Of a DNA stretch of 64,000 bases, positions 30,834 to 39,594 are shown piece by piece. Made by a program: the position numbers and the translations under genes. The stretch lies in assembly GCA_934749845.1 (NCBI GenBank), contig CAKVHQ010000001.1, forward strand, positions 11,750 to 75,749, written 5' to 3'. Source of the stretch: an uncultured Clostridia bacterium (lineage in GTDB: Bacteria > Bacillota > Clostridia > Christensenellales > UBA1242). Position 1 is the first letter of the stretch. The number at the start of each line of letters is the position of its first letter. Below the pieces are notes generated by a model that was given only the letters and a program-made list of their open reading frames with translations, was not told the origin of the DNA and searched no databases.

Positions 30834-31517
30834 TTATGCATTAGGCCAATTTGATGGAGCAGTGCTGTTCCATGATTCATAGCCCTTGTTTGCCGATTGA
30901 ATTGCTTCAATTTCGATTTGAACATATGCATTACTTAAATTATCTTGGGTTAAGTCTTTTGAGAAATGAATGTGCAAAGGAATGTATTGGCTAAGAACGC
31001 CACCATCAGCACCATTCAAAACAACCTCTTTATCACAATAGTATTTGCCATCTGTTCCTGCTCTCCAATACGAGCCAAGAAAATCAGTTATATTGTCTTT
31101 ATATGCTGAATTTGTGTTTGTCCAATATGTTGCTGTGTCGGCAACCTTAATTGTTGCCAAACTGCTAATTGAGCCACCGTTATAAAACGAAAATTTTATT
31201 CTTAAATAATAGTTTTCGCTTCGGTTTTCGGTTGTGTTGGCTAGTTCCAATGTTTTGTAAACATCATCTCTTGCAACTTCGTCGGCAGTGAGTGTAAATT
31301 TAAATACATTCCCCGCAATCGTTTCGCCATTATCAGTTTCCTTAATTGAAGGTTTAACCGAAATATAGCCAAATTTTAAAGTTATATCTTTAATGCTAGC
31401 AAATTTACTGTCCGTAAAGTATGCCATAGTAAAGTTAATAATTGATGAGAGCGCCAATAAAACAGCAATAATAATTATCGCCAAATTTTGATAACTTATT
31501 TTTTTGCTTGTTTTCAT
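30834..31517 (-). CDS. TasA/camelysin-like secreted protein with a SipW-cognate signal peptide (subunit B)
   Basis: MKTSKKISYQNLAIIIIAVLLALSSIINFTMAYFTDSKF. An h-region is followed by the A-Y-F-T-D signature. 227 aa, beta-rich. Confidence 0.6.
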   Translation of the reverse strand: MKTSKKISYQNLAIIIIAVLLALSSIINFTMAYFTDSKFASIKDITLKFGYISVKPSIKETDNGETIAGNVFKFTLTADEVARDDVYKTLELANTTENRSENYYLRIKFSFYNGGSISSLATIKVADTATYWTNTNSAYKDNITDFLGSYWRAGTDGKYYCDKEVVLNGADGGVLSQYIPLHIHFSKDLTQDNLSNAYVQIEIEAIQSANKGYESWNSTAPSNWPNA

Positions 31518-31530
31518 CTGTCCCCCTCCT

Positions 31531-39000: not shown

Positions 39001-39594
39001 CTTAACTTGAGCATCTATTGTTTCGTCAACAATATTTGTTTCGTAAAAGTTATCTGTGCAATATATTTCACTGCCATTTAGTTTTAAGGTGTAACCGTCA
39101 AAACCTTCATCAACTGTGTGGGTTGAAGCGTCCCATTCAATTCGGTTTGTTTCTGTGTTATATTTTAAATTTGTGGGAGATTGGAGTTTTGCCAAAGATT
39201 TTTTTTCAACTTTAACTTGGCATTTTGTTTGAACCTTAACATTGCCTTTCATTCTTATGCCAATAGTTGTTTGTTTGCTTGTGCCTTCAAAATCTTTTGC
39301 TTTAATAACAAAAGTGTCGCCTGTTCGTTGCTTTGGAGAAATTTCAATTAGCGAATTATCGTATTGAAAAAACTCAATGTCAATTTGAGTTGCATTTGCT
39401 GGCTCATACGAAATTTTTATTTCTTGACTTGAACTTTGCAAGTTATCTTCGTCCAAAACTAGCGAAATGCTTGGCTTATCGACCGTGATTTTTTCTACTA
39501 AAACTTTTTCAGTGTTGTCTGTGCAGGCACAAAAAACAATAGCCGACACAATACAGCATAAAGTAAATGTTAAAATTTTGAGACACTTTTTCAT
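33028..39594 (-). CDS. Giant (2188 aa) surface lipoprotein with about 17 Fn3-like modules and a C-terminal GLUG-repeat beta-helix-like domain
   Basis: The ATG at 39594 lies 7 nt after aaggagt. Signal peptide MKKCLKILTFTLCCIVSAIVFCAC. The module signature L-x-x-P-x-N-[LF]-x(6-10)-[LIV]-x-W...Y recurs. The tail has GGIVGKNEG, GGICGYNLG, GGIAGENSG, GGICGLNTS, GGVVAYNSRG and GGLVAYNRE. Confidence 0.85.
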   Translation of the reverse strand: MKKCLKILTFTLCCIVSAIVFCACTDNTEKVLVEKITVDKPSISLVLDEDNLQSSSQEIKISYEPANATQIDIEFFQYDNSLIEISPKQRTGDTFVIKAKDFEGTSKQTTIGIRMKGNVKVQTKCQVKVEKKSLAKLQSPTNLKYNTETNRIEWDASTHTVDEGFDGYTLKLNGSEIYCTDNFYETNIVDETIDAQVKANSIISGKDSDYSNSYTFKVLNSVQNFKHQNGTFSWDKVESASSYKYKIGVLREEIVDSSVTSFNYDFVNKGTYTFSIRAIGENITDSEGNVTCYVFDSKPVEIKVTKLSAPENFVFSKIFYWDTPSLTEQLTKGYEIVEIVDGQENVIASTAQNHYALPENIAVGNHTYKIRAIGDGINTISSDFSASKTVRKLATPTNLRVEDGMVTWDRDANAVSYHLIFMGMFNGKLYTDDFYNTDKSVNPYFYIDQPTQENNKVTFDFSGDKFSGDYIIKIASVSDAENTVDSEFTLPITVSKLEAPDLTSFSLSNNVLSWNANPNASSYNIEFFGEQTILETVYTNSFTLPADMEAMEFSFKVTAVGDSTKKTLTSDKSKLGYGVKLSSPVVYVQNGVLNWEMESNQDFSSYVLSINGTDQNVEKLNQFTFDGYDAGTYSVKVKALGGNASKSGDKYTVGTCDSNFSSVLTVTKYSAPVVKLENGEVSFSADDTAGGSVLESRKNINATQTEISARVYGQDNEHITSELSNVLVVTNAQAPSNLKLEKGILSWDELNEAYKGSYFQLELSFSSNNKDVESFNKVLDMGTNHSKDFTLDDVSSGEYSARVRIIGTTSGINDNLVLNSPYSANFVFYKLSKPTLKATSAINDNIFNINDMLGYLTWDTSSVGIVKAMGYNLKAEKNGQVIELDVKNVNTFELPNEAGKYKISIEAYGNSKEIIDSGYSESIEFEKLKKATNLKVSNDGTISWSSDYNKANDAITGAITNFPKNLRVVYAVEINGNLYSPYNFSKILSNGVDETTFAEVNKVKSVNFNDIREFDINATDPIKFIDGTYKIRILTLPINIYQEDLPVIGNWGHQTDLIADYSDYIEFTKLETPYGFRMDYELNDDLTASNYMLSWTRSLNSNVSGYEVLIKEAGKLDSEGEIFAVGTNTKFNFTQNYLVTKGITNGTYIAKVRSVTTTNNYIYSDYCDELSINILNDIELSISNGVLSWAKNPNAVSYKFIFTKDGEEFTTILSGNLNEYGMTLNNNRKFTAGEYNIKVQVLGNTSSNYNNKIYISALSEKDYGSFIKLETPTNLHVNEGLLNFDCDSTPEYFQLLVSHNSKVDKENITIDKLGSYFEYELAEKFGAGKYSFNLQAMGGTKYINSEISNEITPSEVTKLDSPTLYLKDGILNWNYIENANTYQIQISGSSYNYEVKMPEGVTSFDISGELTTITGEKITLGNGDYSIKIKSIGTNRTYLNSNFSTVKTFRKLVTPKNVKISAGKLTWQAITASGDAPNGLALYIKSSSSSVYNEPIILSNSQNSFDFDGEKYPAGTYNVYLQTIGDTSNSFSVGNICGTPTEVYTIEKLNAPTNSKIEYTSEEEYLGKFTFDALNKSGYDEPKYQLKLKITIKEKVQEISLTLDNQSLEGNKVCYNIPKQIENIPLTSGAEIQFSVKYLGQDKFIDSQFCEPLSIIIPETPTMEVVIDENNNFTGKVKWNEVKVGDNQSNYVLIYQFISLEKANKLGITDINSITEDNWGEDRTEITTSNCHAYVTQKGYYRFKVISTLIIGSGSDITTIKSPEIDYTNAYNYNLFSGGIGTEDDPFIVDSVSTFNYIRYNLTAHYALSKNDSLSQGINFANSVIYPIGSEIEQFTGSFNGNGKMLYNITLSYVAENSSIFDYVGKSGIIKNVIVQNIIITNGSNVGGIVGKNEGQIINVKVGCKQENGQYVYDGTSSISPYATTDQYYSRVGGICGYNLGTITNCESYALIAPRNDYAEVRSGGIAGENSGTISYCYNYGYVGGTGTSKTQIFSNMSGGICGLNTSSISYCGNFGNVFAQSRSANKVSQGAYAGGVVAYNSRGTISYCFNDNSNRDYSSDDLIASKTQIFGLTTINIDVFVGGLVAYNREASNVQNCYTISNVAYELSGTSAIANVGTIMGENKSLYMDVDSGYRVYILSDSMVKNMGNNISQFGNVVEYSKTKTGYNLEQLKVAVRNSFGLTVGEH

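Follow-up and report, generated by a model that had tools for sequence, protein, structure and literature searches.

A four-gene operon of an uncultured Clostridia bacterium encoding a predicted giant lipoprotein, a SipW-type signal peptidase and two divergent TasA-like proteins

Donor-strand fibres of the TasA/BsaA type are an emerging and widespread class of filament in Gram-positive bacteria and archaea, of which, to our knowledge, only the examples from Bacillus and Clostridium perfringens have been studied. Here we analyse a four-gene operon in a stretch of 64,000 nucleotides (nt) from an uncultured Clostridia bacterium (Christensenellales, UBA1242; assembly GCA_934749845.1, contig CAKVHQ010000001.1, positions 11,750 to 75,749), which we call the window. 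The operon encodes a giant predicted lipoprotein, a predicted signal peptidase of the SipW type and two small proteins, here named subunit A and subunit B, which we assign to the TasA-like proteins. In our preferred reading, to which we give a probability of roughly 0.6, all four genes are transcribed as one unit, which specifies an extracellular filament or matrix system of the SipW/TasA type and, expressed along with it, a very long adhesin anchored by lipid.

Among characterised systems, the sipW-bsaA-bsaB-bsaC operon of C. perfringens (Obana et al.; PMC11580942) comes closest, followed by the tapA-sipW-tasA operon of B. subtilis. In published operons SipW is accompanied by a pair of TasA-like paralogues, of which one polymerises and the other does not, and by a large accessory surface protein (PMC11580942). 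In the bsa operon polymerisation proceeds by donor-strand exchange, whereas BsaB forms monomers or dimers only, and many other paralogues of the TasA family likewise do not polymerise (PMC11580942). The donor strand consists of residues 28-38 in BsaA (PMC11580942) and of residues 28-38, freed by cleavage, in TasA (PMC9674648, PMC9245690). BsaA/TasA genes, often as several paralogues, are commonly found in operons that also encode signal peptidases, sortases, LPxTG proteins, fibronectin-domain proteins, SpaA proteins and VWA proteins, and the occurrence of multiple paralogues in one operon has been taken to suggest heteropolymers (PMC11580942).

The four genes of the window operon, in the order of their transcription, and the two main regions of the giant protein are as follows (ORF, open reading frame; aa, amino acids).

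33028-39594, minus strand: gene for the predicted giant surface lipoprotein, ORF of 2188 aa
34321-39198, minus strand: array of Fn3-like modules in the giant protein (residues 133-1758), 15 confident and 2 degenerate modules
33031-34320, minus strand: C-terminal region of the giant protein with GLUG motifs (residues 1759-2188), the presumed distal head
32367-33017, minus strand: gene for the predicted SipW-type signal peptidase (S26B, Ser/His), ORF of 216 aa
31531-32358, minus strand: gene for subunit A, a probable, very divergent TasA-like protein, ORF of 275 aa
30834-31517, minus strand: gene for subunit B, a probable remote member of the TasA/camelysin/BsaA superfamily, ORF of 227 aa

The window operon resembles the bsa operon in its gene content, a SipW-type peptidase with a pair of TasA-like paralogues and a single large accessory protein of the surface, and in both cases LPxTG motifs are absent from the subunits; moreover, relatives of subunit B include proteins that match the BsaA model TIGR04090 (9 of 38). 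However, the large gene stands first in the window operon and last in the bsa operon, and the two large proteins differ: BsaC, a VWA protein, is secreted and requires a type IV pilin, whereas the window partner is a 2188-aa Fn3-like/GLUG lipoprotein without a VWA match in Pfam. In addition, the window peptidase contains a 45-aa insertion that the bsa operon lacks, and the window proteins do not reach the family cutoffs. Of the N-E-K isopeptide triad of BsaA the comparison covered the Asn, and the arm of subunit B holds no conserved Asn, which makes a lock of this type unlikely in the subunit B family.

Similarity to the B. subtilis operon (PMC9674648, PMC9245690) lies in the gene of a dedicated ER-type (endoplasmic reticulum-type) peptidase, which has a surface-protein gene upstream of it and a TasA-like gene on its other side, in substrate signals that end in A-x-F-x-D, and in the TasA fibre being the best fold match of subunit B in PDB. 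A direct comparison of sequences detects no likeness between subunit B and TasA itself, however, and the window operon possesses two TasA-like genes against one in B. subtilis. The TapA position is also filled differently: TapA is small, is processed by SipW and has an N-terminus that mimics the TasA donor strand, whereas its counterpart in the window is a lipobox lipoprotein without any TapA- or TasA-like element.

Three uncharacterised clusters of Clostridia are comparable in layout. Two of them (L007 and L009) contain a VWA protein, SipW genes and BsaA/TasA-like paralogues, and the third (L017) contains a SpaA/PA14 protein, SipW, three paralogues and a sortase; in all three the gene of a 1,050-1,350 aa surface protein lies directly upstream of the SipW-type gene(s) and of at least three TasA/BsaA-like paralogues on the same strand. 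Unlike the window lipoprotein, the large proteins of these clusters are equipped with ordinary Sec signals and contain VWA or SpaA/PA14 domains. Further differences from the window operon are the presence of BTAD regulators and/or a sortase, a larger number of paralogues, and subunits and peptidases that score above or near the cutoffs. The initial annotation of the window had regarded the system as undescribed, a view that cannot be kept in this generality, as the operons in PMC11580942 and these three clusters already combine SipW with TasA/BsaA paralogues and large adhesins. The general architecture of SipW, TasA-like paralogues and a large surface protein is thus known, and what is particular to the window operon is its Fn3-like/GLUG lipoprotein partner with a constrained length, a minimal set of four genes without sortase or regulator, two subunits with clearly different arm lengths, the insertion in the peptidase and a divergence that goes beyond the curated models.

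A more distant comparison is offered by the archaeal bundling pili AbpA/AbpB, in which a TasA-like, donor-strand-complemented pilin is accompanied by the larger partner AbpB, whose distal beta-domains have been proposed to act as adhesin and initiator (PMC9245690). The archaeal operon has no dedicated peptidase and AbpB has a TapA-like domain, unlike the giant protein; the likeness to the window proteins is at the level of the superfamily only (AbpX, E = 0.12, non-significant). The giant protein itself can be compared to the fibrillar stalk adhesins of Gram-positive bacteria, in which a long array of Ig/Fn3-like domains likewise carries a terminal non-repeat domain. These adhesins are anchored by a C-terminal LPxTG motif, whereas the giant protein would be anchored by its predicted N-terminal lipid. 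The published 'conserved pilin' of TANB77 was also considered as a relative and was ruled out, since it belongs to an unrelated Tad-type pilus cluster.

Judged by its sequence, the 216-aa protein is a divergent signal peptidase of the ER/archaeal type (SipW-type, S26B) with an intact Ser/His pair. Ser41 (codon 32895-32897; SSEP) and His83 (codon 32769-32771; TTHQIV) are invariant in seven sequences, and in an alignment with SipW-type enzymes that score above the cutoff (L007:10713-11171, with 88.4 bits, and the enzyme of L017) they coincide with the Ser of G-S-M-E-P and the His of T-H-R-V, respectively. The initial annotation had named the lack of a functional Ser/His pair as a refutation, and in the sequence both residues are in place. 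Pro44 and a G-K-V box are also invariant across deep divergence, and two hydrophobic segments (residues 4-39 and 181-199) agree with the two-transmembrane topology of SipW-type S26B enzymes. Both proteins with an A-[WY]-F-T-D motif are encoded directly downstream of the peptidase gene.

The S26B signal peptidase models, with which the same annotation had proposed to check the assignment, leave the window peptidase below every curated cutoff: TIGR02228 gives E = 2.5e-6 and 27.4 bits (cutoff 51.85), the SipW model NF046067 gives E = 1.8e-3 and 17.9 bits (cutoff 190), and Pfam S26 gives E = 0.023 and 15.1 bits (cutoff 22.9). The orthologue in L014, a far more distant metagenome-assembled genome (MAG) of Clostridiales, is shorter (188 aa) and has no internal insertion; its match to TIGR02228 covers positions 5-156 of 158 (E = 7.3e-13, 48.7 bits, just below the cutoff), and it matches the SipW model with E = 4.6e-10. 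In the peptidases of the window clade an insertion of ~45 aa (residues ~97-145), which contains conserved Cys residues (EHCG, RCQI), replaces the TKGD box; neither the L014 orthologue nor canonical SipW-type enzymes contain it. Acidic residues after the His box (the GD-N...D region) matter in SipW, Sec11 and archaeal enzymes. A downstream D-A (Asp150) of the window peptidase aligns with D-A of L007 and L017, and in L014 the alignment at this point is insecure.

In both subunits the N-terminal hydrophobic segment is closed by a signal of the expected type, SFTGA-WFTD in subunit A and NFTMA-YFTD in subunit B, and these are the only two A-[WY]-F-T-D motifs in a six-frame translation of the 64-kb window. 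The motifs, which the initial annotation had pointed out in both small proteins, are indeed present at these places. Within each family of closely related orthologues T-G-A|W-F-T-D and T-M-A|Y-F-T-D are invariant (alignments A1 and A2), while the distant L014 versions read A-Y-F-K-Y and A-L-V-N-D. They also fit the column pattern of 38 full-length relatives of subunit B, 12 of which pass TIGR04088 at E <= 0.01, and the variant TGAWFTD recurs in further TasA-like proteins (P0038, P0040, P0070, P0078 and P0112).

Subunit B is, as far as its sequence allows the assignment, a remote member of the TasA/camelysin/BsaA superfamily, because transitive profile searches link it to PF12389, TIGR04088, TIGR04090 and the TasA model. 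An indexed search found eight relatives among 5.8 billion proteins, and a profile built from them retrieved 153 representative proteins in an exhaustive search. Among the 38 full-length relatives, PF12389 (Peptidase_M73/camelysin) and TIGR04088 are each matched by 12, TIGR04090 (BsaA family) by nine and the TasA model by two. A broadened profile collected 568 proteins, many of them annotated with PF12389, and one source describes a member as 'SipW-dependent-type signal peptide-containing protein'. This transitive route carries the TasA-like case because the window proteins themselves fail the curated cutoffs. The initial annotation had suggested hidden Markov model searches with TIGR04088 and PF12389 as a check, and these give no direct support: subunit B reaches 12.7 bits with TIGR04088 (E = 0.11, cutoff 19) and subunit A gives no match, while PF12389, TIGR04090 and NF046066 match neither subunit even at E <= 1. 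Subunit B has no Pfam match, and a PHROGs scan of both subunits revealed nothing significant.

At the level of structure, the AlphaFold2 model of subunit B is an all-beta sandwich (predicted local distance difference test, pLDDT, 79.2; predicted template modelling score, pTM, 0.75), and its top Foldseek match in PDB is 8aur_A, the TasA fibre (probability 0.94, E = 1e-3), at a template modelling (TM) score of 0.28, which is depressed by the signal-peptide helix included in the models of both subunits. The N-terminal pattern of the whole family is [TS]-x-[AS]|[YFW]-F-T-D, then 7-13 residues, then [FLT]-G-x-[IV]-x-[IV]. In subunit B the F-T-D is followed after ~13 residues by F-G-x-I-x-V, a TasA-like pattern, and a C-terminal tail EA-x-Q-x-AN...W...P-x-x-W is conserved. 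In the monomer models of both subunits the arm behind the cleavage site has a pLDDT below 50. We count this in favour of a donor-strand role because residues 28-38 of BsaA and of TasA have been so described, although a low-confidence arm in a monomer model is consistent with donor-strand polymerisation rather than diagnostic of it.

In some relatives subunit B carries C-terminal extensions of 140-580 aa. One such extension is a module of ~180 aa that starts with '…YTQL[QE]YIE-x-TG-[ST]-Q…' and is fused to the subunit B C-terminus in L003 (8468-9718) and L005 (6189-7349; P0011); it forms a separate downstream ORF in L016 (9109-9561) and a 55-aa remnant in L002 (11568-11735), and is missing after position 30834 in the window. 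The module has no match in Pfam, PDB or PHROGs. Longer extensions are carried by other relatives, namely P0014 (413 aa), P0018 (807 aa) and P0023 (580 aa). Furthermore, positions 60-136 of the subunit B profile are matched 17 and 10 times by repeats in two large proteins from elsewhere, P0027 (3173 aa) and P0034 (2637 aa), respectively, which suggests that the core half-sandwich of the family may also occur as a tandem repeat module in large proteins.

Subunit A is more distant than subunit B. It has no match in Pfam, NCBIfam (including TIGR04088), PDB or PHROGs, and its BLAST likeness to subunit B is confined to the signal peptide. Profile-profile comparison (hhalign) against the subunit B superfamily yields probabilities of 97.8-98.8% over the full length and of 80.8% for the mature region, and a more diverse alignment raises the latter to 93.9% (E = 1.6e-7); the alignment of the mature region spans only 52 C-terminal columns (YYYN...E-x-x). 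Since 20 column-shuffled controls gave 0.7% at most, we consider subunit A to be a real, very divergent TasA-like paralogue on the strength of this profile similarity. Two divergent TasA-like paralogues had been proposed from the outset, and profile comparison upholds both, but it is only remote homology that shows them. The AlphaFold2 model of subunit A is a beta-sandwich with helices at 143-174 (pLDDT 77.8, pTM 0.71) and retrieves only non-significant lectin and jelly-roll matches in Foldseek. The structural comparison of the single subunits, another check suggested in the initial annotation, places the TasA fibre first for subunit B, by a marginal match, and gives no such match for subunit A. 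Sequence searches of PDB with the profiles of subunit A, subunit B, the peptidase and the extension module gave nothing significant, the best match being again AbpX.

The two subunits differ clearly in their arms. The distance from the Asp of the F-T-D motif (Asp36 in subunit A) to an invariant Gly is 5 residues in subunit A and 13 in subunit B; in TasA we take the corresponding spacing to be 10, as counted from the published sequence. Subunit A has in addition a helical insert at residues ~143-181, which is absent from its 183-aa orthologue in L014, and a C-terminal helix.

The giant protein is a predicted lipoprotein with a conserved lipobox. Its sole hydrophobic segment (residues 2-28) contains a signal that ends in the lipobox F-C-A-C24, and the lipobox Cys is found at the same position in all orthologues with the pattern [FCTG]-A-C (VFCAC|T, VCCAC|T, VFGAC|T, VFTAC|N, ILFAC|N); an LPxTG motif is absent from the protein. 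An iterated self-profile resolves 17 Fn3-like domains, 15 of them with independent E-values of 1e-7 to 1e-27, which are marked by a recurring W...[SG]Y pattern. The modularity is defined by this self-profile and not by Pfam cutoffs: Pfam fn3 gives E = 1.3e-4 and 22.6 bits on residues 1085-1158 (cutoff 25), and no other module comes close. In the C-terminal region of ~430 aa, Pfam Glug is matched in three stretches with E = 3.6e-8 and 33.7 bits, above the cutoff of 20.5, and residues 1901-2000 are the most conserved 100-residue stretch in comparison to L006 (52%). Lipobox, module array and Glug match thus agree with the earlier description of a 2188-aa lipoprotein made of Fn3-like modules and a GLUG domain. 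The Fn3-like modules show no relation to the fold of the subunits (hhalign probability <=1.5%), and no TasA/TapA-like acceptor or donor element was found in the giant protein. The two-subunit donor-strand fibre that, in the initial annotation, is anchored to or displays the adhesin therefore stays a conjecture. A TapA-like donor strand at its mature N-terminus was considered and rejected: C-TDN...KITVDKPSISL resembles F-TDS...DITLKFGYISV by eye only, L006 and L014 lack the TDN, and the remainder fits the generic first strand of an Ig-like domain, so that we regard the resemblance as coincidence.

The orthologues of the giant protein measure 2173-2205 aa in all seven lineages in which the operon was found (the window, L001, L002, L003-5, L006, L016 and L014), with identities down to 11-35% per 100-residue stretch; like the total length, the number of modules stays almost the same over this deep divergence. 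Repeat or stalk adhesins usually differ in module number, and the near-constant length of the giant protein at ~20% identity therefore suggests a constraint on the length of the stalk.

The four genes are one conserved unit. The order giant gene, peptidase, subunit A, subunit B is kept in the window, L001, L002, L003-5, L006 and L016, always between ychF and a cvpA-like gene, and the same order recurs in L014 between mscL and rmuC. This second chromosomal context argues for functional linkage and not for inherited synteny alone, and the co-conservation that the initial annotation had set as a check is thus found in seven lineages and two contexts. Given the strict association of the giant gene with its three neighbours, a joint role in attachment or aggregation is suggested, as far as gene content can indicate it. 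The operon family is rare: a relative was detected in one of 185,579 species-representative genomes, in a scan that did not recover the window's own species although it is present in NCBI and ENA assemblies, and the metagenomes of JGI yielded nothing in a first scan and one 2.9-kb contig in a second.

On the basis of these data the system might work as follows. A conserved sigma-A-type promoter at 39627-39655 would drive all four genes. The giant protein would be exported, lipidated at Cys24 and tethered by its N-terminus to the cytoplasmic membrane. Modules of the Fn3-like type are ~3.5-4 nm long, so that ~17 of them could hold the C-terminal GLUG head ~60-70 nm from the cell. Subunits A and B would be exported by Sec, kept in the membrane by their unusually long signal peptides and cut by the Ser41/His83 peptidase after T-x-A32 and before [WY]-F-T-D, by homology to the processing of TasA and BsaA. 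Cleavage would free the N-terminal arm, and the arm of subunit B could then complement the beta-sandwich of the following subunit as an inserted donor strand and give rise to a non-covalent, TasA-like fibre, with subunit B, to judge from its sequence, as the propagating subunit. Subunit A, whose arm is ~8 residues shorter and which has the helical insert and the C-terminal helix, may be a minor, non-propagating end subunit (cap, nucleator or anchor), in a role analogous to that of TapA or BsaB.

Several observations weigh against such a filament system. Apart from the Glug motif, no protein of the operon passes a curated family cutoff, and the loss of the TKGD box to the 45-aa insertion leaves the third catalytic acidic residue of the peptidase uncertain. 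Subunit B matches the TasA fold only marginally (E = 1e-3, TM 0.28), and its broad profile finds no TasA chain in PDB by sequence (best AbpX, E = 0.12); for subunit A, Foldseek returns no significant fold match in PDB (none with E < 0.045, TasA outside the top 50). The giant protein contains no TasA/TapA-like domain (all profile matches E > 0.05), and the weak likeness of its N-terminus to the arm of subunit B is not kept in L006 or L014. Finally, many paralogues of the TasA family, such as BsaB, do not polymerise (PMC11580942). It is conceivable, though in our estimate rather unlikely, that both subunits are processed by the SipW-type enzyme without polymerising and serve as secreted or surface accessory factors of the giant adhesin (chaperone, sheath or matrix partner), in which case no fibre would exist. 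The truncated arm of subunit A and the weak evidence for the fold of the subunits would accord with this, as would the 140-580 aa extensions of subunit B, which fit a monomeric or tip protein better than a tightly packed homopolymer, and BsaB and other family members that form no oligomers, beyond the dimers of BsaB, provide a precedent (PMC11580942). Yet subunit B retains the full-length arm pattern of polymerising members together with the conserved C-terminal tail, the monomer model shows its arm as disordered, in agreement with BsaA and TasA, and a dedicated peptidase with two paralogues is a hallmark of filament operons (PMC11580942).

A different question is whether the giant protein belongs to the fibre system at all. 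It could be an independent fibrillar adhesin that only shares a promoter with the SipW/TasA-like cassette under a common regulation of surface remodelling: its lipobox targets it to Lgt/Lsp and not to SipW, it has no TasA/TapA-like element, and the exchange of the large partner for VWA or SpaA/PA14 proteins in other Clostridia suggests interchangeable cargo. We consider this decidedly unlikely, because four genes in fixed order, with a giant protein of near-constant length, persist in seven lineages whose protein identity falls to ~20-35%, and because a linkage maintained in two unrelated chromosomal neighbourhoods would be unusual for unrelated functions. Highly improbable, in our view, is that the 216-aa protein is an inactive S26B relic or a general type I signal peptidase and that the A-x-F-T-D motifs are not its specific substrates. 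Its scores under every curated cutoff and the replacement of the TKGD box could be read in this way, but Ser41, Pro44, His83 and the G-K-V box have remained invariant across deep divergence, the gene occurs only inside the operon, a distribution of one relative in 185,579 representative genomes is incompatible with a housekeeping role, and the sole two A-[WY]-F-T-D proteins of the window adjoin the peptidase. The filament or matrix system co-expressed with a lipid-anchored adhesin therefore remains our preferred reading. It could be taken further to a composite organelle, in which a lipid-anchored 17-module stalk of fixed length is physically coupled to a two-component TasA-like fibre with subunit A as obligatory terminal and subunit B as propagating component, the latter in some relatives also displaying a C-terminal module of lectin-like type. 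A gut Firmicute with a small genome would then possess a 'TasA pilus' that needs neither sortase nor chaperone and brings an anchor or ruler protein of its own, a proposal that we regard as speculative and quite unlikely.

If the filament reading is correct, the operon extends the TasA/BsaA-type class to an uncultured low-GC lineage of gut Firmicutes, the proteins of which are missed by standard annotation. A compact set of four genes with two subunits unlike in the length of their donor arm would offer a clean system for understanding how such fibres start and stop, while the unusually constant length of the giant partner hints at a structural constraint. The alignments obtained in this analysis could serve as seeds for models to annotate these proteins in gut metagenomes.

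The organisation of the operon is tight. The giant gene starts at ATG 39594 with a ribosome-binding site (RBS), AAGGAG, 7 nt before it; an alternative start, TTG 39600, was rejected because it is too near to the RBS, at a distance of only 1 nt. The giant gene ends with TAA at 33030-33028, and a gap of 10 nt separates it from the peptidase ATG at 33017, with an AAAGGAG RBS that overlaps the stop codon. The gap between peptidase and subunit A measures 8 nt (RBS AGGAG) and that between subunits A and B 13 nt (RBS AGGAGGGGGA). The coordinates and gaps of the four packed minus-strand ORFs, as given in the initial annotation, were all recovered with their RBSs, and a hairpin with an A-run and a T-run was located that corresponds to the single bidirectional terminator said to close the unit. 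The regulatory features around the operon are the following.

30787-30815, no strand assigned: bidirectional intrinsic terminator, hairpin AAAAAACTCTGTGCTAAACAGAGTTTTTT with a 12-bp stem, an A6 run on one side and a T6 run on the other
39627-39655, minus strand: sigma-A-type promoter-like site from a consensus scan (TTGATA, 17 nt, TG-extended TAAAAT)
39682-39701, no strand assigned: 20-nt perfect AT-rich palindrome TTATTATTTATAAATAATAA, a candidate operator or UP-like element

The terminator lies between the subunit B gene and the convergent cvpA-like (Colicin_V/CvpA-family) gene, and with an A-run and a T-run at its flanks it can therefore work both ways. At the other end, the intergenic region between ychF and the giant gene comprises 333 bp and also holds the terminator of ychF (39904-39920). 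The promoter-like site is only ~30 nt upstream of the giant start codon, and the block TATTTTGATAATTT...TAGTGTTAAAATAA is near-invariant in five lineages whose proteins are only 35-85% identical. Because a conserved promoter-like site stands so close to the start and the ychF terminator falls within the intergenic region, the 5' untranslated region of the giant gene is probably short. The AT-rich leader of roughly 330 bp noted earlier thus exists as an intergenic region, but not all of it is leader. The palindrome exceeds every other perfect one of the 64-kb window in length. It is placed 27 nt upstream of the conserved -35 hexamer; its length was reached in only 6 of 2000 shuffles of the leader, and it is largely kept in L002, L003 and L016 and weakly in L006. 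A riboswitch was ruled out, as Rfam gave no match in the leader beyond a chance SraG at E = 0.6.

The operon sits amid core housekeeping genes, with secA, tilS, ftsH, ychF, mnmE, mnmG, tex and dnaX present in the 64-kb window, in which no rRNA was found. The G+C content of the window is ~30-40%, and the absence of a compositional break at the operon argues against a recent horizontal acquisition. A further surface protein is encoded ~10 kb from the operon (49447-50976, plus strand): this 509-aa protein contains collagen triple-helix repeats (E = 7e-28) and, with a sub-threshold match to the BclA C-terminal domain (29 bits, cutoff 38), resembles the surface proteins of exosporium filaments.

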